Shown here: positions 4,905 through 63,199 of the stretch, in pieces | How positions within the stretch are numbered: the first letter of the stretch is position 1 | Layout of the letters: every line of letters begins with the position of its first letter | DNA from: Girardia tigrina | Taxonomy: Eukaryota | Reading direction: 5' to 3' | DNA: 64,000 nucleotides | Assembly (NCBI GenBank): GCA_001938485.1 | Contig: MQRK01205638.1 | Span: 23,028-87,027 of the forward strand | Notes under the pieces: model-generated | Databases searched by the model: none | The model's input: the letters and a program-made list of their open reading frames with translations, nothing else | Told to the model about the DNA's origin: nothing | Program-made: the position numbers and the translations under genes

Positions 4905-5337
4905 TGTGAGGAATATTTTAGAATGGTGTTTATTGTATGTTGTTTTGTATGTTCTTTTAAGATTATGTTTCTCTACCAAGATGGAAGATTGATATTTTAA
5001 ATGTTTTAAAATTATTTGGATAAGAGTATTTGGACAATTTACAAATGTAAATAAAAACTTTAAAATTAAATTAATTTATTATAAATAATACATTTTACAT
5101 ATTTTTAAAATAATTGAACTTATTTTGTAATTTAAATTGTAAATTATTTTGTAATCAATATTGCAAATTAAATGGTCATTTGAATTTGTTTGAATAATAA
5201 TGTGTTTAGAAAGAGAAATAAAATTTATCAATTAAGAACGATGAATAGTTACAAAAGTTTTGTAGATAATTGTTCTTGAGTCAATGCGAGTTGTAATATC
5301 AATAAATGTATTGAAAATCCAATTAGTGTTATTAATA
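4905..5337 (+). mobile_element. solo-LTR-like element, TG...TA family, copy 1
   Basis: Starts TGTGAGGAATAT, carries the shared CTCTACCAAGATGGAAGATTG box and AATAAA about 30 nt before a TTAATA end. Flanks GTCAT/TTCAT (4/5 TSD match). Confidence 0.75.
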
Positions 5338-8267: not shown

Positions 8268-10675
8268 TTAGGTAATTGAATTAATTCGTTGCGTTTTACG
8301 ATAAATTGCGGGGGTATTACATTTTTATGCTTTTGCTTTCAGAAACAAATTCCTCTTAGATCAGATGTTGTTAAGTATTGTTTTAACGACTCATATATTA
8401 GGTGTATAACTTAGTTTTTTGGATTTTTTTGCAGAACAGACAAGTTTATTTATAGGACATAATAAGTTTTATTCTAATCAAAATATTTTCCATCGTTAAT
8501 TATGACTTTCGACCATCTTTCAGGCAAATTATGAATTCCATCGAAAAAAAGAGTTTTGGTCTTTTGATGCGATCCATTGTTCCAGCCATTTTTTTATATG
8601 TTCCTGGTTTCTGAAGTGCTGGTCCCGAAGAGCGCTTTGAATTGATCGGAACAGATAATAATCTGATGGGGCACAATCTGGCAAATAGGCAGCATGCGGT
8701 AGAATTTCCCATTTAAGTGCTTCCAACGTGTTTTTTACTTGTTTTGCGACATGTGGCCGAGCATTGTCATGGAGCAAAATCACTGTGCGCTGTTTATTGG
8801 CTNNNNNNNNNNNNNNNNNNNNNNNNNNNNNNNNNNNNNNNNNNNNNNNNNNNNNNNNNNNNNNNNNNNNNNNNNNNNNNNNNNNNNNNNNNNNNNNNNN
8901 NNNNNNNNNNNNNNNNNNNNNNNNNNNNNNNNNNNNNNNNNNNNNNNNNNNNNNNNNNNNNNNNNNNNNNNNNNNNNNNNNNNNNNNNNNNNNNNNNNNN
9001 NNNNNNNNNNNNNNNNNNNNNNNNNNNNNNNNNNNNNNNNNNNNNNNNNNNNNNNNNNNNNNNNNNNNNNNNNNNNNNNNNNNNNNNNNNNNNNNNNNNN
9101 NNNNNNNNNNNNNNNNNNNNNNNNNNNNNNNNNNNNNNNNNNNNNNNNNNNNNNNNNNNNNNNNNNNNTTTGAATCATTTTCATAGCATGTAGACGTTTA
9201 CTTATGGCTGCTTGAGTAACATTTAACTGTTTTGCAAGCTCTTTCTCTGTTTGTGTAGAATCTTCCTTCAGTAATGATTCCAAATCTGCATTTTCGAATA
9301 TTTTTGGTTGACCGGAACGCTCCTTGTCAATTACGTCGAAATCTCCACTTTTGAAACGTTTATACCAGTTCTCGCAAGTCTGTTGAGTTGGGCATGTTGC
9401 CCATAAGTTTTTTCAAGAAGCCGAAAACTGTTTGCAGCTTTTTTCTTTTGATTAAAACAAAACAGTAGTGCTTCCCGCAAATGCAGTTTTGTTGGTATGA
9501 AAGTTGTCATGCTAAAACGTGATTAAAAATATGTTTATGACGCATTTAAGGTCAATGACCTACTTAATTTTAATGCCTCGATTTCAGCACTTTAAAAATT
9601 TGTACGTACGACTGTAAAATAATGCTTATTACATAGGTTACACCATCTCTTAGAAAATCCAAAAACTAAGTTATACACCTAATACTATCAAGTGTTAGTT
9701 ACATCAGCTTACAATTATTTATACAATTTCTAAATTTATACTAAATAATTTATTTTTGTTGGAAATTCTATAAGATTACTTTTATATAAATAAAACTACT
9801 GCGGAAAGCCATCAGATTTTAAACGGTAAACAAATATCAGAAGGGAATTGCGATATTCAGGAGGTAAGATTTTGACTTGGAAGACAAAGATTGATCTGTA
9901 TAGCGCAAAAGTTTGAAAACAAAGAATTAAAGGCCTTACTGGAAGAAAACTCATCTCAAAAACTTGAAGAGTTGTTCTCATAGTTGGGAGTTGACTTTTC
10001 CACGGTAGGAAAATGACTTAAAGAGATAAGAATGATGAAAAAGAATGGAAATGGGGGGGCATACGAATTATAACCTAGGGATGTTGAAGAGTCTTTTGAG
10101 ATTCAAATTTCTGCTTCAATGGTATAGAAGAAGTCTTACATCGGATTTGTACTGGTGATAAAAGTGATTTATTATGGTAGAATCAAGCGTAGGAAGTCAT
10201 GCTTTAGGCCTGGAAATTAGTACCAAAACGTAATATTCATCGATCTAAGCTTTTTTTACATTTTGTGGGATTAACTGGGTATGATTAATTATAAAGTGCT
10301 GATAAGGCTAGACAGCACTTTTTAAAACCATTGAAGATGCACCTGCAAACACTGACATGCGAAGTCAAAACGCAACCATCGTATTCTCGATATATTGTTA
10401 CTTTATATTATTGATTAACCTGGTTGATGGCTTACGGTTTTTTGACGGAGAAATCAACTACTTTCAAAGAATGTAAAAATTGAATCGATTTACAGATTGA
10501 CTCTAAAGAACGGAACGTTTTTTCCCGACCGATTATCCATCTCCTACCAAAAGATTGAAAAACATAGTTGCAAGGATAAACAATATTTTTAGTAATGTAT
10601 TTCTATATTTAAATTTAAAATAAATAAATCTTTTTTGACTCTCAAAAAAGTCTACAAATTGATTCCATCACCAAA
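8268..10675 (+). mobile_element. old decayed mariner (outer element of a nested pair)
   Basis: Degenerate TIRs at 8268 and 10645-10675. Broken transposase remnants at 9800-10590 (WGAYEL, RICTGD, QPSYSRY). Split by the inner mariner. Confidence 0.75.
8398..9682 (-). mobile_element. mariner (DD34D) transposon inserted at TA, partly in an N gap
   Basis: TIR TTAGGTGTATAACTTAGTTTTT at both ends with TA TSD. HDNARPH...YLPDCAPSDY (8529-8783). N-terminal HTH starting from ATG near 9510. Confidence 0.93.
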
Positions 10676-22921: not shown

Positions 22922-23330
22922 TGTGAGGAATGTTTTGAATTGTGTGTTGATATTGTGCATGTTTTATGTTAATTCGGATTGTCCCTCTCCTACACAGATG
23001 GATGATTGGTATTTTCTTTGATTCCTACTAATTAAAAATAATTTAATTTTAATGTAAAAAGATTTAAAATAATTTTTGAATATATTATTTATATTTTAAT
23101 GTAATTTAAAATTTTAATATATTAATTTAATATGTACTTTTTTGAAAAATGTTTATATTTAATTTTAACCAATTAGATTATTTATAATTAATAATTTTTA
23201 TTAACATATTTTCATTAATTGAAAATAATTAGTATGAACTCAGAAATATATCGATCAAGAAAAATGTCAAATAGTGAATGCGCTTGTGATATTAATAAAT
23301 GTTGTAAAACTCATATTGATATTGTTAATA
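22922..23330 (+). mobile_element. solo-LTR-like element, TG...TA family, copy 2
   Basis: TGTGAGGAATG start, CTCTCCTACACAGATGGATGATTGGTATTT box, AATAAA, GTTAATA end. Flanks GAAAT/TAAAT. Confidence 0.75.
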
Positions 23331-24550: not shown

Positions 24551-25560
24551 TATGTCTTCAAGTATAAAATTTGCAAAACTAAAGTCAAAGTTTATTGATA
24601 ATTTACCAATACTAATATTTTTGTCATTCATCAAACTATGCACCCATATTATCGACACGCTTTTGCCGTTTCAGAGGAAGCTTGTAGAGGTCATTTGAAT
24701 AAAAATTTGATTGGCGATTTTATGTAAATTCCAGGAAAGTCATTTTTACGGCATTTTCAGAATTCAATTTTTTTTCCGAGCATACAGTTATTCAAATTCA
24801 GGGAGAAATGGTAATCAGTCGAGGTAAGGTCTGGTAAGTATGGAAGATGGATTCATAAATCCAAAGTAGTTTTGTAACAGTCTTCAGTGCAGTATGTGTT
24901 TTTGCATTGCCTTGGAGCAAGATGTAAGTCGACATGATAACCAAAAGCGGTTGATTTTCTTTCAGTTTCCGCATATTTTCCAAGTGGTTGCAGTAGACAT
25001 TTACTGTGATCAACGAACCAGGTTTTATGAAGTCATGATGGATTACATCTGCAGCAGACCACCAAACACTCACTACAAGTTTCTTTTGATGAATGTAGTA
25101 CTTTGAACTGTGGTTTTGTTTTTCATTTTTGTTCATTCAGCTTGTTTAAAGTTTGTGATTATCATATTAAATCTACTTTTTAACACATTCTTTTCAACAC
25201 CATGCAGCAATTTCCCAAACGCTTTTGATTCTGATTTTCATTCAACTCATGTTCAATCCACTTTTATAACTTTTTCTCTTTTCCAATTTGAGCCAAGTGA
25301 TTCAATATTGTTTTCTTTGTGAAAGTTGTTAAAATAAAATGTTAGCAATAAATCATGAGTGTTTTGTGATTGGTCCAATTCCACAGTTCCATGTAATTGG
25401 TCATTATCTAACCGGGTTTTTGGGCGACCCAGAGACTCATTATTGATGTTAAAAATACATTTCACAAAGTTCCTGAACCAATTTTAGACTGTCTGCTGCG
25501 TAGTGGCATGGTACTGAATACATTTCGGATATTTTTAAATTTAAGAAAAGAGAAAAACGT
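24551..25560 (-). mobile_element. decayed mariner
   Basis: HQKKLVVSVWW, LLQGNAKTH and GRPKTRLDNDQL remnants in several frames. Boundaries approximate. Confidence 0.85.
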
Positions 25561-27309: not shown

Positions 27310-28140
27310 TAAACTTTTAAGTCAATACAGAGGTTTTCTTTTATGATCAATCGAATTTTCTTTATAAAAGGAGTTTCATTAGTAATTGAGTCACTAGTTT
27401 TGTAAATCTCGAAAAAATTGAAATTAAAATTAAATAAAGTATTTTTTGTGAAAAGTATCATGTTGTATAATTTTCGTATTTCTATTATATCATTAATAAG
27501 AAATTTAAAAAATAATGGCAAAATTTTATAATCCAGAACGCTATTAAACTCAAATTTTATTGTCGCAATATATTTCGGTGGATTTTCCACCATCTTCAGG
27601 CTGAATTATCAACAATTTCGCTGTCTTATATATAGTAAATTGATGATTATGCAAACATCTTGTGTAATAACTAATTAAATATTTTCAACAAATTGGAAGA
27701 GAGACTTGTTTGGACATTTATGGACGGATTAAGTGATTTAATCAATAATGCTTCACAAGTAACTCTTTCCCAATAATTTTTAAAATCACTGCAAAATATT
27801 TTAAAATTAGTTACTTTCACCTCCGATTTACAACTCTTCATATGTCCAGCAATATTACTCGCATTACCCAATCGTCCATGCTCCTGAATCCGTTTACAGA
27901 GATGACGAGACGTCTCTCCAATGTATGTAGCGTTGCACCAATTACACGAAAATTGATAAACAGACTGGAACATAAACTCAAAGGAGTACGAGATTTATTG
28001 CTGAACATACTTTGATTAAATCACTTAATCCGTCCATTAATGTCCAAACAAGTCTCTCTTCATATTTGTTGAAAATATTTATTAGTTATTACACAAGATG
28101 TTTACATAATCATCAATTTGCTATATATAAGACAGCGAAA
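27310..28140 (-). mobile_element. Penelope 3' fragment (GIY-YIG plus pLTR) with inverted 5' arm
   Basis: ORF 27671-27973(-) VYQFSCNWCNATYIGETSRHLCKRIQEH...ERVTCEALLI. 28013-28140 is inverted relative to 27616-27743. Confidence 0.9.
27565..27601 (-). ncRNA. minimal hammerhead ribozyme, intact core
   Basis: Reverse complement reads GC CTGAAGA T GGTGG-AAAAT-CCACC GAAA TATA TT GC. Confidence 0.8.
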
Positions 28141-34058: not shown

Positions 34059-35850
34059 CAGGGTGATCATAAATCAACTACCGGGTTTTAAACTGCAATA
34101 ACGTTTTTTGCCAAAACATTATGAAAAAATGGTTTTAAATAACAAAAAAGCATTTATTAAAATTTAATAATATTCAAGAGAATAACCATCGACTTCAATA
34201 CAATGTTTAAGGCGTCCATGAAAAGACTTTGTGAGGAATATTTTAAATTGTTTGAATGTGTTAATGTAGTGATGCTGTATGTTGATTTAAGTATGTGGAA
34301 TTTAGAATGGTGATTCTCCCACCCAGATGGAAATCGGTATTTTTTTATTAAATATAAAGGATTGACTATTCGAACATAATTAAAATAATCATTTTATAAG
34401 TTCATATCTTTAATTTTAGAATTAAAATTAAGTTTAATAATTTTTAGTAAAATTTAAATTAAATGCATTTTTAATAATTTGATGTCATTTTTATTATTTT
34501 GGGATTTATTGAAAAGTGGTAAAAATTAATATTTTTAATTAATATTTTTTAGAGGTTAAAAATTTTTAAAAATAATTTGGAAAAATTGTTCAAATAATCA
34601 TGATTAAAAACAAAAATAAGAAAACCAATTAGAACGATGGCAAATGATGAAAGACCTTCTGAGAGTCTTAATGACTCTAAGTGTAATTGCAATAAAGATT
34701 TAAACGAGACTTGTTTAAATGTTCTTAATAGACTTCATTGCTTTTAGGCACATTTCACCATCTATTTTCGCCGCTTCTTGACAAATAAAGTCTTTAAGTT
34801 GCTGAATTGTTTCTGGTTTTCTCTAATACACTTCATTCTTCAAATGCCTCCACACAAAAAATCGAGTATTATCAAATCAGGTGACCTGGCCAGCCATACA
34901 TATGGACCACATCGTCTCAGCTAAAGTTGTGGAAATGTTTCATCCAGAAATTGTCGCACAATCAGTGAATAATGGGCAGGTGCTCCATCTTGCTGGAGCA
35001 CAACTTTCCTTTTGCATGTTCTTGATAACGATGGCATAAAGCAACGTTTTAACGTATCCAGGTAATGTTATGTTTCCTTCAATAAAAAAGGGCCCATAAA
35101 CACGAAATAAAGACAACCCCATCCAAACAATAACTTTTTCACTAGCCTGTAACCTCTGATATGTTTCGGTTGGTGTTTCAGTGCCCCAAATGCGACAATT
35201 ATGTATGTTTACAATTCCGTTAAGATGGAAAGTTGAGTCATCAGAGAATATCAGGTTACTAAGAAAATTTTCATCTAAATCTATCGATTGAATTAACGTT
35301 TCACATATAACACGTCTAAGAGCACAATCTTCTTCATACAATATTTGCCTGGATTGAATTCTGTAGGGGAACATTTTTAAGTCGTTTCGTATTACTTTTT
35401 GAACAGTTCCTTAAGAGTAATTCAGAGTTGACAACGATTTCCTGATAGAAGACTGGGGTTCTTGCTTAAAATGTTCTGCTATCTCATTTTTATTTTCATC
35501 ATCAATTGGTGGTCTTCCAGAATTTGGGGCATTTAGAACGCTTCCTGTTTCTTCAAACCTTTTGAAGATGCTTCTAATACTTTTTCGGTTGTAATACTTT
35601 TCCATTTAAGTCGTTGAAGTTCTCTTCTTACTAAAGTCACTGACCCATGCTTCTCAAATAAAATAACAAATTTTACACACTGATTTACATCCATTTTGAA
35701 TCTTATGCTTAAAACAATAACAAAATTAATATGTTTAAACAAAATGTACTTTTAATGAAATTCTAAAAAATAAGCTTCAAGATGCCTTTATAATTAAAAA
35801 GAAATACAATATAATTCAAAAGTTATTGCAGTTACTTTATGATCACCCTG
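34059..35850 (-). mobile_element. DD41D (rosa/Visitor-type) Tc1/mariner element, defective
   Basis: TIR CAGGGTGATCATAAA with TA TSD. FSDDSTFHL, QQDGAPAHY and SPDLIILD motifs, with 41 residues between the 2nd and 3rd D (counted). C-terminus interrupted by the LTR-like insertion. Confidence 0.92.
34230..34730 (+). mobile_element. solo-LTR-like element, TG...TA family, copy 3
   Basis: Perfect GACTT TSD (34225-29 / 34731-35). Removing the insert restores the transposase frame CLKAMKS|FHGRLKHC. Ends TGTGAGGAATAT...ATGTTCTTAATA. Confidence 0.88.
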
Positions 35851-38512: not shown

Positions 38513-38782
38513 NNNNNNNNNNNNNNNNNNNNNNNNNNNNNNNNNNNNNNNNNNNNNNNNNNATATATATATATATATATATATGGAAGTTAAATTCGTT
38601 GTTTAAACGAATCAATTTTTTGTATTTTGTGAGAACGAATAAAGATATATATATATAGCAATATCGATTTTTCTTTATTTTGGAGATTGAATGTGTAATT
38701 TAAACGGACAGATAATTTTGCCTTTTGGCTATGTTTTTAACGTAAAATATTTTATCAAGACATGTGTAGCCATTTATGAACC

Positions 38783-39225
38783 ATGGAAAGAATTGATGAG
38801 AATATTTCAAAGTTGTGGAAACAATATTGGAACGATGTTTTGGAAAATAATCACTAATGAACACGGAATCAAACCGACCACTGGTGTTTACGAAGGCGAC
38901 ATTGATTTGCAATTACCGAGAATTTATGTTTACTTTAATTCTGGAATTCATGGAAAATGTGTCCCAATCAGCGTCATGGTTGAATTGAATAGTACCACTC
39001 TCGATTATGTACTGAATTCGAACCTTGGGAAATTCTTTCAACCCGATAATTTTATCGGACGTTCCTCAAGTGCTTCTAAGAATTGCGACGGATTGGACAA
39101 AGCAGTTGTTATTAGGAAAAGATTAATTGTTCCTTCATTTTCAATTTGTAATTGTGTTTTAGTGTCACGGAAACTTCGTACGCTGAATTGAAGAATTGAC
39201 GTCTAAAATGTTGGTTGTAAAAATG
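38783..39225 (+). pseudogene. TUBB: beta-tubulin pseudogene, divergent and internally deleted
   Basis: CGNNIGTMFWKIITNEHGIKPTTGVYEGDIDLQLPRIYVYFN...FFQPDNF aligns with beta-tubulin aa ~1-100. SRKLRTL/IEELTSKM (frameshifted, ~39165-39225) resembles QQYRALTVPELTQQM at aa ~280. Confidence 0.88.
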
Positions 39226-40409: not shown

Positions 40410-40863
40410 TGTGAGGGATAATTTGGAATGTTGTAAGTTTGTTGTTTGTATGCTGTTTAGATTTGTGACTCTCCTACCCAGATGGGATTGGATATGTTTA
40501 TTGATTGAATATTTGAATCCAATGAAATTAATTTAATGATATTAATTTTAAGTACTAAATAATTAAAGTTTGATAATTATGAATTTTAATAATATTTTCA
40601 GTAAATGATTTTAACTTATTAAATGTAATATATTTTAAAAATTAATGTTTATTTAAAACAATTATGTAATGACTTTTATCCAATAAAAATTATGAGAAAT
40701 TAAAATTTATTATTAATCTTTCCCATTCGTTGTTTTTTTAGATTTGAATATATTAAGAAAAAAACTGTATCAATCAAAGGAAAGATGCTCTCTGAAAATT
40801 GTTGTGAAGAATCTGTTTGTGTTGTCAATAAATGTTTGCATTCAAATTGTGATGTTGTTAATA
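40410..40863 (+). mobile_element. solo-LTR-like element, TG...TA family, copy 4
   Basis: Perfect ATGAC TSD. TGTGAGGG start, CTCTCCTACCCAGATGGGATTGG box, AATAAA, GTTAATA end. Confidence 0.85.
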
Positions 40864-42840: not shown

Positions 42841-43781
42841 TTTGGTTAGCCAAAATTCTTTTCGTATTTTCTACGTATTTTTGTTCAATTGTTTCTTATT
42901 ACCAAATAAAGATATTTTATATACATGTATTATATGTTTTTAAAGCTCTTGAACTACTCTATCACAATATATATTAAAACTTCTAATTAGTCTTTAATAT
43001 AATTTTTATGGTCTTTTAGAAAAATCATGGAAAATTTTGAAATTCGTGTTCTTTGACGCCATTACTGGAAACAGGGCTTAAACGCAACTGCAGCAACAAA
43101 GAAGATATGCGAAGTTAAAGGCGATAATGTGGTCTCAAATTGTACTGCTATCACCGTAGATTCCGGAGCAATTCATGAAGCCGTCGAGATAAATCCGTCA
43201 ATAAGTACTCGCAGATTGTCGGCCGAACTCGATATTCCTCAAACATTTATTGAACGACACCTTCACGCTCTTGGCAAGGTCAATAGTCGAGAAGTACCTC
43301 ATGAATTGACACAAATTCAAGCCAAAAAGAGTTTAGAAACTTGTCAAAATTGCTTGAAATCCACGCGATGACCGTTTCATTCGTCGAATTGTAACTTGCG
43401 ATGAAAAGTGGGTTTACTTCAGTAATCCAGACCAACAAAATCAATGGTTGGACCCCGGACAAATGGTGAAACCCATAGCGAAACGAGATCGTTTCACTTT
43501 TGTGTGTTTGGTGGAATTTCGAAGGCGTGATTCACTTTGAGCTGGTTCCAAATGGTCGTACCATCGACGCTGACCTTTACGGTGCCCAATTTGATCGCAA
43601 GTATGCGGAACTTGGCGAGAAATACCCCGCTTTGATCAATCGAAAGCGAGTTCTTCTGCAACAGGACAATGCAAAACCGCACACCGCCAAACAAACAAAG
43701 GAAAAAATCAAAAATATCGACGCCTTTGAACTTCTTCTACACCCAGCGTAAAGTCCGGATCTTGCGCCTTCCGACTATCAC
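42841..43781 (+). mobile_element. mariner, 3'-truncated
   Basis: Left TIR follows a (TA)n tract. VPHEL, IVTCDEKW, QQDNAKPH and HPA*SPDLAPSDY motifs, then an abrupt junction. Confidence 0.9.
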
Positions 43782-50449: not shown

Positions 50450-52521
50450 TAAGCTTGCCTGGTTGGAATTCTGACCAACTTAGTATAGTGGGCGAGAGCT
50501 TGCAATTCACCACTGTAAAAGGCAATGTTTTCTGAGTAGGACTAGGAAAACGGGTAAGGGGGAGGCCCATAATCTGTTGAGGACTTGCAAGTAAGTACTT
50601 GGACAATGATACACCGACTCAGCTCCTGGAAAGCTCTATGAACAATTAGTTCCGTAAATTACTCGATTGAGACGACATAGATCTTCACCTCAAAACCTGG
50701 ATTAGTGAGCATTTACAAAAATGTTAATTGAGTAAGATTCTCGATTATTGCTTACATTGTAAAAATATAATCTCTTATCTTGTAAAGATTTACTGTTTTC
50801 TCATACAGAATGGCTTTCATTCACATTATTACCGGAGGTTCAATGAATCATTATTAATAAGACACTACAAACCATTAACTATTTTTGGAAATTAACAAAA
50901 TAAGGCCGTCTCAATTCTTTATATCTTGAGTTAAATTAAAAAAAATATGTTTTATTAATATCCAATTATATTTTTATAAATGATAATCTTTTTGTTAAAT
51001 TGTTTTATTTTTTCAATTAACATATAATTTAAAATTCAACAAGACGTTTTTCAACCCATAAAACATAAAAAAATTATTATTTTTTTAACAGTCTATAACT
51101 AAATTGTTTTTATAATATATAGATTGTTAGAAATATTTGTATTATTTAATTTTTTTACTTTTATAATGTATCATAAGTCAAAGCTTGACTAATTAATCAT
51201 TTTGTATACACCTATAGATCTATTGACTAAAGGGGGGCACTTATTAATTTAATTATGTTAGGGTAATGAATCCAGTCCTCAATTTAATAATTAGATGGTG
51301 ATATTAGCAATAAATACCTTTCTAACTTAAGTTTGAACTTTTTCCTCATCAAAGACATTATAAATGGATATTCTTCTCACTAGTGGCCTTTTTTGTGTGA
51401 AGTATTTGATTTTACGTATTTATTCCCATTAAAAATTATAATAAAATATTTGGCAAATATTTTAAATTTAAAAAAATATAATTTAAAAATAATTATTTAC
51501 AAAGATATTTGTTTACTAATTTCCAAAATCAATTCCTAAACTTTATTTTTAATAGGAGTTATTTATTTTTTTTCAAATATAATAATTTTATTTATTCTTT
51601 TGTTTAGTTTTCCATTTTCTTATTTAGATAATTAATGTTGCACGAAGTCGAAATTGTGGGTCAGGAAAGTCGTGACCGAATAGTAACGGGAGATAAAAAT
51701 CCTCAACCGGAATTAGGCTTAAAAAATCTTTTTTACAATTAAAAAAAAACTAAATTATTATTAATATTAAAATTATTAGAATTTTTTCCAAAATTTACAT
51801 TTTAAATATTCAAAAGAATTTCCCAATATTTTATCAATTTATAAAAATTAATAAATAATTTAAAAATGAATTTAAACAAAGTAATTTTTATCAATCAGGA
51901 TTTTTCTATTTGATACACATTTCCTTTTTTATCAGTTTGATGATAATAAACATACAAATAATGTTTGGATAAATAATTTTACTAGTAAAATATTTTTTGT
52001 TATTTTTAATTTAATTTGTTGTTCTATCATACCCTAAAAAATCACATTTAAGAATCAAATTAATGTTCTTTTTATAATTATTTATAAACTATTTATGGAT
52101 TTTGAGGCTTTTATGGCCAATGAGGAATGTTTGATGTTTATATTATCCATATTTGGACTCTAATTTCCTCTTTAAATTATGTGTGAGGAATATTTAGAAT
52201 TGTATCAATGCGTGAATATATTGATGCTGTATGTTGATTCGAGTATGTCGAAATTAGAATTGCAATTATCTAACCAAGATGGAAATTGGTATTTTTTGTA
52301 TTTAAAGTGATTGACGATTCAAACATAAATAATGATAATACTTTGATAAGTTTATATTTTTGAAATTAATTATTAAAATCGATTTTCATATTTTTTAAAA
52401 ACGAAAAACATTCAATTAGATATAAATAAAACTAATAAAATTTAAATTAAATTCATTTTTCATAATTTGAACACATTTTTATTATTTTGAGTTTTTATAA
52501 AGATATAGTTATAATTATTAA

Positions 52522-53121
52522 AAAGTGAACTCCATTTTTCACAATTTATTTTCGTAATTAATTTCGGCGGATTACCCGCCATCTTGAGCGCCTCATGCGG
52601 CTTTGTATGATGTAAGTGATGATTTTTGCATTGATATATGTTCTAAGGTTTCTATTGATATGTCTAATAATCTTTTAAAAAATAAAATCGATTCACAGAA
52701 TAAAAAACTTATAAATTTACGCAAATTATTTGGTGTTTTTCGATTTGATGTCCAAAATACAGTTTTACACTTGAGTGATTGTAAAAAGAAAATCGGAGAA
52801 AATGATTTTAAAATTCTGTGTAATCGATTTCAAAATTACTGGGAGAGAGTAACGTGTGAGGCCTTATTAATAAGATCCATGGATTCAAAAATTAATATCC
52901 AAGCTTCACACTCAACTTCTCTGTTAAACATTTTCAAATAGAGCCTTTATTACATGATTGATTGCATAATCACCTTTCTCATATATAAGCTGCAAAAAGC
53001 CAGTGTTAATTTAGTCTGAAGATGGCGGGTAATCCGCCGAAATTAATTACGAAAATAAATTGTGAAAAATGGCGTTCACTTTTTAATAATGAATATAAAT
53101 TGCCATTATTTTTTAAATTCC
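52522..53121 (+). mobile_element. RT-less Penelope derivative with inverted 5' arm and 17-bp TSD
   Basis: TSD ATAGTTATAATTATTAA (52505-21 / 53122-38). 52514-52585 is inverted relative to 53019-53090. ORF 52603-52941 fuses the N-terminal region to the GIY-YIG tail. Confidence 0.9.
53014..53050 (+). ncRNA. minimal hammerhead ribozyme, intact core
   Basis: GT CTGAAGA T GGCGG-GTAAT-CCGCC GAAA TTAA TT AC. Confidence 0.82.
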
Positions 53122-54220
53122 ATAGTTATAATTATTAATTTTAATTAATATATTTAGAAATTAAATATCTTAATAATATCGAGATATATTGTTTGAATAA
53201 TCATGATTAAAATAAAAAAAACAATTAGAACGATGTCAAACGGTGAACGATCTTCCTAGAGTTGCGATGACTCTAAATGTGATAATAATAAAGATTCAAA
53301 TGAAAATTGTCTCAAGGTTCTTAATATTATTATTCTTTGTTTTCAATTTTGCATATCATTCTAAAATTTCAGCTTTTCTTTTTCCGAGCTTTCTCTCGAC
53401 TTAATAGAAAATATGTAATATTTCTTTGCCGAAAACTCATGTAATCGAAATTGGAATGATTTGGTTTTTTATTATGATACTAATTGTCATATAAATCAGT
53501 AAAAAAATCAATTCATCTGATTCAAAACCGGACACTCCAATATCTTTATTGTACAAAATATTTTCTCCAAATTTCTATGAGTCATACTTTTTCAATCACT
53601 AATCGACAAACTTTTTTTTTACTTTTTATTTACAAATTTGATTTTTTTACATTTTAAATTGTAATAAATTAAGTCACGTATAAATAATTAAAATTGATCA
53701 ATTTAAACAAAATTCAATCAACATTATTTTTAAAGCATATAAGAACAAGAATAATAATAACAATGATAATAGAATAAATTTAATAACATTAGGACACATA
53801 TGTATAATCACATCACACTGAATACATAAACATAAACACTTTACATATTAACATCCTCACGTTTCATTAACATCGAATCGATTAATCGAAATCGTAATTG
53901 ACGACAGCAAACTCGAACATATAACAATAATAACTCTTTTTTAATTTTATTTAATTAATTATTTTGCTTAATTATTTATTTATTAATATTCATTGATTTA
54001 TTATTTTGTTAGGGCAGTAAAATAATTTTCCGATCTATAAATTAAAATATTTTAACAACTTAATGCTCCCATTTTAAAATAATTCTCAAAAAAAATCTGA
54101 AAATTTGTTTCTAGCTCGTTTGTATATTTTGATACCAAGAAAGAAATATTGACATTAAAAAATTTTAATTTGTCTTTCAATAAATAAATATTTGCATAAT
54201 CGTCAATTTGCTATGTTTAA

Positions 54221-54938: not shown

Positions 54939-55409
54939 GCTTGCGATAATGGTGTTCCTAAACTTTGTTCGGAAAGTCTGACTTTAGAAATAAATATTAT
55001 CGAGACCATGGTAACTTCAAAAAGTTTCCGTATCGAAAGCATATCAAAGCATCAACTGAACATCATTTTGATTATAGTAACCGCCGTTGTCAGTTGCTTT
55101 TTGTGCATTGCGCTCATTGCTGTGTCGCTTTGCATTCGAAAAAGAACTAACTTCTCAGACAACTCCACGAATAACTTCAATCACATTTCCGATTCGGCAT
55201 TTAAAACAGATCAAAAACCCACGATCACAGATAATAATGAGTTTCTAACCGAAAGCCGATTATTCTTTCCCGTTACCGGGCCAGATGTCTGCGAATTGTG
55301 TATTACGGAACCTTTACTCCAACAAGCCAGTCCGGTTAGTTCGTTATCTTTTGTGGAAATTACAATTTTCAGAATGATTTCCGCTATATTTACGGGTTTT
55401 TTTATGTGA
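54939..55409 (+). CDS. cadherin/protocadherin-like exon: end of last EC repeat, transmembrane helix, cytoplasmic start
   Basis: TTTAG acceptor at 54937-38. Phase-0 ACDNGVPKLCSESLTLEINII matches AxDxGxPxLS. Hydrophobic IILIIVTAVVSCFLCIALIAVSLCI followed by RKR. Possible donor GTTAGT at 55335, otherwise stop at 55409. Confidence 0.55.
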   Translation, partial: ACDNGVPKLCSESLTLEINIIETMVTSKSFRIESISKHQLNIILIIVTAVVSCFLCIALIAVSLCIRKRTNFSDNSTNNFNHISDSAFKTDQKPTITDNNEFLTESRLFFPVTGPDVCELCITEPLLQQASPVSSLSFVEITIFRMISAIFTGFFM

Positions 55410-61977: not shown

Positions 61978-63199
61978 TTGGGTTGGGCAAAAAGTCATTG
62001 CGTTTTTGAGTACGTCCTACTAAAAGGCTTGAAAATATAAAACGATGTCATAAAATTTAAATTCAATTATATATTCTGAAACCTTGATTTTCAGACTATG
62101 TTTATACAAAATATTAATTGATTTTGTTTTAATTTATTACTTTATCGTCAATTCGAAATGGAAAATCAAAATGAGCATATTCGTCATGTTTTGTTACATT
62201 ATTTTCGCAAAAGGAAAACCGCTGTGCAAGCTCATAAGAAGATATGTTTTGTATATGGTAGTGACTCCTAAAAAGTTCGACAGTTTCAATACTGGTTTTC
62301 TAAATTTCCTTCTGAAAAATTTCATCTGAAAGATGCACCACGCTCCGGTCGACCAGTTGAAGTTGATGATGACAAAATAACAGCACTGATCAAATCTAAT
62401 CCACATATGACGACAAGAGAAGTGGCAGAGACTCTGGAAATATCAAAATCAAGTGTTGGAAGTCATTTAAAGAAACTTGTATTCGTCAGTAAACTCGATA
62501 TGTGGTTACCACATGAACTGAAAGAAATTCATTTGGTGAAACGTATAGACATTTGCGATTCCCTTTTGAAGAGAGAACAAAGTGATCCATTTTTGAAGCT
62601 CTTGATTACGGGTGACGAAAAATGGATTGTTTACAACAATGTGGAACGCCTACGATCATGGACAAAACATGGTCAGCCTGCCAAAACGATCCCAAAAGCA
62701 GAAATTCACCAAAAAAAGTTTATGCTTTCCGTCTGGTGGGATTTTAAAGGAATTGTGTTTTTTGAACTCCTTCCGAGGAATGAAAACATCAATGCAGACA
62801 GATATTGTGGTCAGCTGGAGAAATTGGCTATTCAATTCAACAGGAACGTCCTGAATTGGCAAATCGAAAAGGAGTTGTTACTCGCCAAAAACTCTTATCA
62901 CTGGGTTGGAAGGTTTTGCCACACCCACCGTATTCTCCAGACTTGACCCCATCGGATTTTCACTTATTTAGATCACTGCAGAATTCCTTAAACAGAAAAA
63001 AACATTCGCCAGTGATGATGACATCAAATCGTGCCTAGACGGCTTTTTTGGAATCAGGAATAATGAAGCTACCGGAAAGGTGGAAGAAAGAGATTGAAAA
63101 TAATGGACAGTATATCGTGTGAAAATATTTGTGCATCCATATCATTTTTTGATAATAAATATTTTAGTAAAAAACGCAATGACGTTTTGGTCAACCCAA
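61978..63199 (+). mobile_element. mariner (DD34D) with both TIRs, defective
   Basis: TIR TTGGGTTG(G/A)(G/C)CAAAA(A/C)GTCATTGCGTTTTT with TA TSD. Frameshifts and a ~40-bp deletion removing HDNARPH. Confidence 0.95.

Follow-up and report, generated by a model that had tools for sequence, protein, structure and literature searches.

TA and CA ends in related Ty3/Gypsy LTR families of the planarian Girardia tigrina

Five dispersed repeats in a 64,000-nt stretch of the Girardia tigrina genome (contig MQRK01205638.1, positions 23,028 to 87,027; hereafter the window) begin with TGTGAGG and end with TTAATA. Long terminal repeats (LTRs) usually have the termini TG...CA, with known exceptions. The locus raises the question of what these repeats are and how an end in TA, which the preliminary description of this DNA had ascribed to every subfamily of an LTR retrotransposon lineage, is maintained.

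All five repeats proved to be solo LTRs from Ty3/Gypsy families of high copy number. They were found where they had been described, all on the plus strand and with the common start and end, at 4905..5337 (copy 1), 22922..23330 (copy 2), 34230..34730 (copy 3, 501 bp), 40410..40863 (copy 4) and 52182..53326 (copy 5). The target site duplications (TSDs) were likewise as described, perfect for copy 3 (GACTT/GACTT) and copy 4 (ATGAC/ATGAC) and matching at 4/5 positions for copies 1, 2, and 5. The inner motifs proved more variable than had been stated: the CTCTCCTACCCAG box is exact in copy 4 only and the AAGAA(C/A)GATG motif in copy 1 only, with variants of both visible in the remaining copies, and the AATAAA near the LTR end is present but starts 37 or 40 nt from that end instead of ~30-35 nt. 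The copies represent different subfamilies, copy 1 an older one; copies 3 and 5, which are kin, are 71-76% identical, and the others ~66-75% over short stretches. Solo LTRs would come from recombination between the two LTRs of an element, and a search for a pol remnant within the 64-kb window found none.

The extra length of copy 5 is a nested insertion of ~620 bp (52505-53138) with 17-bp duplication flanks and 75-bp inverted arms. The inserted remnant resembles window positions 27550-27815, whose open reading frame matches Pfam GIY-YIG, and is likely Penelope-derived. The plus orientation of all five LTRs has a chance of about 1 in 16. An account of this orientation by antisense position in an intron was dropped because a nearby cadherin-like exon is also on the plus strand (54939-55409, an exon-like reading frame that has a transmembrane stretch, an end resembling cadherins and a weak match to Cadherin_C_2, E 0.017). 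The window also holds a decayed tubulin fragment (38691-39191, plus strand; Pfam Tubulin E 6e-9).

Copy 3 lies in a host DNA transposon (34059..35850, minus strand) with 15-bp inverted ends, TA flanks and a decayed transposase. We take this host to be Tc1/mariner-like; a Pfam search with a 156-aa piece of its transposase gave no match. The interruption of the transposase by copy 3, claimed from the sequence, was borne out by nine of nine other host-transposon copies, each an empty site with a single GACTT in place of the two that flank copy 3 (34225..34229 and 34731..34735), and the limits of copy 3 are thereby fixed. Between these limits, all on the plus strand, are the U3 end TGTGAGG (34230..34236), in which TGA at 34232-34234 is the pol stop when the repeat is a 3' LTR, as judged from the junction test given below; the conserved inner box CTCCCACCCAGATGG...GGTATTT (34316..34343), which by sequence comparison is also present in a CA-ended sister family; an LTR tail (34637..34730) whose gag frame stays open from the ATG at 34637, which would start translation, to a terminal AAT, an Asn codon; an AATAAA (34691..34696), likely the poly(A) signal, that reads as Asn-Lys in that frame; and the U5 end TAATA (34726..34730), the canonical YAACA with C replaced by T. 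Mariner-like transposase remnants occur elsewhere in the window, at 1-1028, 62231-63196, ~8500-9400, 24800-25480 and 43057-43751, the first two being 93-95% identical to each other.

DNA searches of the species' own genome were run with copies 1-4 against an AT-rich assembly of 1.43 Gb in 255,254 contigs, and each copy has many near-full-length relatives, so that the shared features are not due to chance. At least 40 near-full-length matches were scored for each, among 3,988 candidates for copy 1, 2,328 for copy 2, 4,566 for copy 3 and 2,571 for copy 4; the relatives of copies 2-4 are 93-96% identical and those of copy 1 81-83%. Thirty loci per search were analysed, and removal of 11 duplicate loci from the 120 left 109 copies, which are decayed. 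A primer binding site (PBS) follows 10 of the 109, and a polypurine tract (PPT) precedes 5. Among the 102 copies without a PBS behind them, a 5-bp TSD is perfect in 62 and matches at 4/5 or more positions in 81; a 4-bp TSD after TA is perfect in one. The flanks of these 81 show the preference AT-N-[TSD]-N-AT, with A and T at -8 and -7 and A and T at +7 and +8 (49, 60, 57 and 51 of 81; p <= 8e-6).

Paired LTRs enclosing a PBS, gag-pol and a PPT were found elsewhere in the genome, and the LTR retrotransposon identity proposed for these repeats stands. The element is 5.2 kb long and has the structure LTR-PBS-gag-PR-RT-RH-IN-PPT-LTR. Locus L031 is a full but broken example whose LTRs, matching copy 3, are 94% identical to each other and surround a 4.2-kb interior; it reads 5' LTR, gag with CCHC knuckles, protease, reverse transcriptase (RT), RNase H, integrase, PPT and 3' LTR, with Pfam support for the CCHC, the RNase H and the integrase Zn finger, and gag and pol are seemingly in different frames. 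The superfamily is Ty3/Gypsy by the PR-RT-RH-IN order, the Gypsy-type RNase H and a best PDB match to Ty3 (E 3.6e-77 and 1.1e-100). In Ty1/Copia elements integrase would precede RT, opposite to the order here. BEL/Pao was set aside since no Pao family is among the 14 Pfam matches of P0125, a close database relative, and an Errantivirus (Zam/gypsy) since the LTR starts with TG, not AGTTA, and pol reaches the 3' LTR, leaving no room for env in L031. Database matches did not supply a clade name within Gypsy, the close ones being unnamed metagenome proteins and the named ones 30-47% identical. An AAATTTC heptamer ~965-975 nt after the PBS in L031, L034 and L035, near the gag/pol overlap, is a candidate -1 frameshift site; it was not seen in all families.

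The LTR-PBS junction pattern TAATA-TGGCGAC gave 3,885 matches, vs 31 for a control, and the PPT-TGTGAG pattern 3,349, vs 0; these are matches and not copy numbers, as the assembly holds duplicates. The primer is tRNA-Arg: a tRNA 3' pattern was used to fetch six loci, and in five, one of which belongs to the copy-3 family, the LTR end runs directly into a reverse copy of tRNA-Arg with CCA; the remaining locus is an array of tandem genes, which lack CCA. Since the PBS abuts the LTR end without a spacer, minus-strand DNA begins at the terminal A. At L074-L078 and L065 the LTR end is followed by 18 nt up to the whole of a reverse copy of mature tRNA-Arg and then by unrelated DNA, the arrangement expected of integrated plus-strand intermediates that would have kept the primer copy. 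The stop at 18 nt in L065 is presumably the expected modified-base stop. In the copy-3 family PBS (L013, L024) 7 nt of tRNA pairing are followed by a one-base offset, and further copying of the tRNA would shift the gag frame.

The TA end is a property of families. Relatives of copies 1-4 end in TA in 103 of 109 cases and in CA in none, and the first 100 of 2,753 window-type LTR-PBS junctions have T in 97 and C in 3; TA thus descends from active elements and, as had been proposed, is not decay. The claim that TA marks every subfamily did not hold. One very abundant sister family shares the TGTGAGGAATATTT start and the inner box, yet of the first 100 among its 7,097 matches 93 end in CA (T in 6, G in 1; the six T show how much decay is ordinary). 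Families further removed likewise end in CA; TAACA-TGGCGAC gave 2,133 matches, most from these more distant families.

Both LTR ends probably overlap coding sequence, a point absent from the preliminary description. The AGAACGATG-like motif contains an ATG that is in the gag frame. Translated in this frame, the last 80-100 nt of all five window copies give a peptide rich in Cys and Asn whose last residue is Asn, interrupted by one stop each in copies 1 and 5. In full elements the terminal A of the LTR and the TG of the PBS form a second in-frame ATG. When 103 copies from four families were compared, the frame was open with an upstream ATG in 90/103 in the gag phase vs 22/103 in the control phase, one control phase being closed by construction; counted by tail group the excess is weak, 27 vs 17 in 49 groups. 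The spacing from AATAAA to the end is 37, 40 or 43 across the clade, and AATAAA and the upstream TGT could be kept as poly(A) signals alone. The change from CA to TA is predicted to be AAC to AAT, at the third base of Asn, and hence silent in Gag. At the other end, the pol stop is the TGA of TGTGAGG inside the 3' LTR at 22 of 30 PPT junctions by a strict in-frame test, and the closest intact database proteins end likewise. Four sequence runs (contigs) have the same two boundaries, in rows that stop short of the terminal base.

The reading we favor, with a probability of about two in three, is that families are fixed for TA or CA because a shared integrase tolerates either pyrimidine and the change is silent in Gag. 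The enzyme would accept C or T before the terminal A, and at each integration it would join a CA end on one side and a TA end on the other. In retroelements a mutation in U5 is copied into both LTRs within a single round of replication, and a C/T change there would then drift to fixation within a family. Gag would start at the ATG inside the LTR, putting the C/T position at the third base of an Asn codon (AAC/AAT), so that only C or T would be allowed. The permissive change would be a His-Asn pair at the place where retroviral integrases have Pro-Gln, which in their intasomes packs against the end of the DNA. A bolder version, in which flatworm-type Gypsy elements lost the integrase Pro-Gln loop, freeing CA, and the Gag codon alone holds the C/T toggle, is offered tentatively and we hold it to be rather doubtful.

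The U3 end keeps a canonical CA-3' on the bottom strand; with TA at U5, a single integrase would act on one end of each kind at the normal 5-bp spacing. Alignment gives YHH(N/S/Q)xNG..ERQF for the loop that precedes the catalytic Glu, compared with YHPQSSG..ERKN in prototype foamy virus (PFV) and HPQ in Ty3. His-Asn stands lineage-wide, in TA and CA families alike, at foamy-virus integrase Pro214-Gln215 next to the DNA end, and the HHx..ERxF loop is shared by 68/76 of the database proteins that bear the motif and by loci of either end type. The available portions of two structural reports describe PFV Pro214-Gly218 as intruding between the DNA strands (PMC6784120) and an RSV Gln as stacking on the G opposite the penultimate C, RSV having Ser for Pro (PMC7955051). 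The altered loop may permit TA; being alike in CA and TA families, it does not account for which of them have TA. Selection for TA, through integrases of TA families co-adapted at residues outside this loop, would suit the near fixation of T in several divergent families and, from the accessible part of the report, the separate grouping of integrases of plant TG...TT elements (PMC5659011). Against this, the U3 end obliges the same enzyme to accept CA as well, a comparison of the alpha-4 region between TA and CA loci found it identical, with no integrase switch, and TA and CA families interleave in trees. We regard this explanation as unlikely.

Those trees bear on the history of the end. The gag of the CA sister family is nearer to that of the copy-3 family than the gags of the copy 2 and 4 families are. 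A gag tree of 44 rows chosen by hand and 92 columns, from which 37 of 106 junctions without alignable gag were dropped, places the window-type families in one supported branch of 21 TA and 6 CA rows, with five changes in all. An RT-RH tree made by a quick method, which includes the RT of L230, whose junction may not belong to that RT, agrees in nesting the CA sister family among TA families. In an AU test run without six odd or short rows, a TA-only clade is rejected (p 8.7e-5); its groups were defined once the first tree was known, and the junctions had been sampled through their pattern. Because the CA family nests among TA families, the end switched more than once on the tree, through several gains or through a single gain followed by reversals. 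A distant family of the lineage has TA at two loci (L063, L077) and near relatives that end in CA, possibly a separate switch.

LTR swaps between families could mimic repeated switches, L246 looking like a mosaic. On that account TA arose once and was then spread or lost by LTR swapping during reverse transcription, so that trees of gag and RT would not reflect how the end evolved; L246 combines an LTR tail of copy-3/5 type, a CA end and a CA-family gag, and the three C among TA-type junctions are in keeping with this. Against it, the CA family has its own LTR, distinct throughout, the distant family carries TA at L063 and L077, and swapping would still need integrase tolerance. We give it slightly less weight than co-adaptation. 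Decay of CA to TA by C-to-T change after insertion is real, as the six TA among CA-family ends indicate, but it yields ~6%, not the ~95% seen with no CA in families of 94-96% identity, and is very improbable as the source of TA. A true end at TAAT with a 6-bp TSD, which copies 3 and 4 alone would fit equally well, or an identity other than LTRs, can be dismissed with equal confidence, since the 6-bp model is perfect in just 17/102 copies vs 62/102 for 5 bp, base -6 is A in just 20/81, and a PBS, a PPT and gag-pol are attached to the elements.

The preliminary description had called the family unrecognised. This stands insofar as a literature search found no description of the lineage, a weak result since one search missed Spoink and repeat libraries lay outside its scope; for the ends it has to be toned down, as TG...TA is in print for Spoink and for plants. 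Ty1 of yeast resembles the present lineage in a Gag start inside the LTR and a PBS in the Gag frame abutting the LTR, and differs in its Copia-type order, TG...CA ends and initiator-tRNA primer. Spoink, a Drosophila element of the Ty3/gypsy mdg3 group, has LTR ends TG...TA and is also alike, in the portion of its description available, in a PBS directly behind the LTR, a length of ~5.2 kb, lack of env, RT-RH-IN order and an AT-rich target motif; it differs in a 4-bp TSD and 349-bp LTRs, compared with 5 bp and ~410-500 bp here (PMC10965091). That portion describes neither CA/TA sister pairs nor a coding LTR tail. Typical mdg3-type RT/RH motifs seem unlike those of the present lineage, and an origin separate from Spoink is thus likely.

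Among plant LTR elements with non-TGCA ends, TGTA is one of seven types listed in the accessible text on LTR_retriever (10.1101/137141), and TGTT/AACA elements have been described (PMC5659011). From these partial sources, the plant elements share fixed non-palindromic ends and 5-bp TSDs with the present ones; they are mostly Copia (89%) and rare (870 vs 83,368 canonical), whereas those here are Gypsy, animal and present in thousands of copies. The available part of a further report gives a general LTR att consensus of TGTTRNR...YNYAACA, with Zam (AGTTA...TAATT) as an exception (PMC3601003). CTTAATA matches YNYAACA except at the C, and AATAAA near the end is likewise shared; in Zam both ends are changed and env is present, compared with a single U5 base here. 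Burro of planarians, as far as the source extends, is similarly an abundant Gypsy element of AT-rich flatworm genomes (PMC6431247), >30 kb long with extra domains and env homology, compared with the minimal 5.2-kb elements here. The TA end is a known kind of exception, to which switching between CA and TA among sister families at a probably silent position is added.

For the integrases of retroviruses and LTR elements the terminal CA counts as invariant, and integration of non-CA ends is poorly understood. Sister families that are one base apart, and that have in common an unusual integrase loop and normal 5-bp TSDs, open this question to a comparative test. Programs that search for LTRs by a TG...CA motif would overlook some of the commonest families in the genome studied here. 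If the loss of Pro-Gln and the Gag codon reading are both true, the lineage would amount to a natural experiment in the recognition of DNA ends by integrases, in an element without untranslated sequence between its LTRs.
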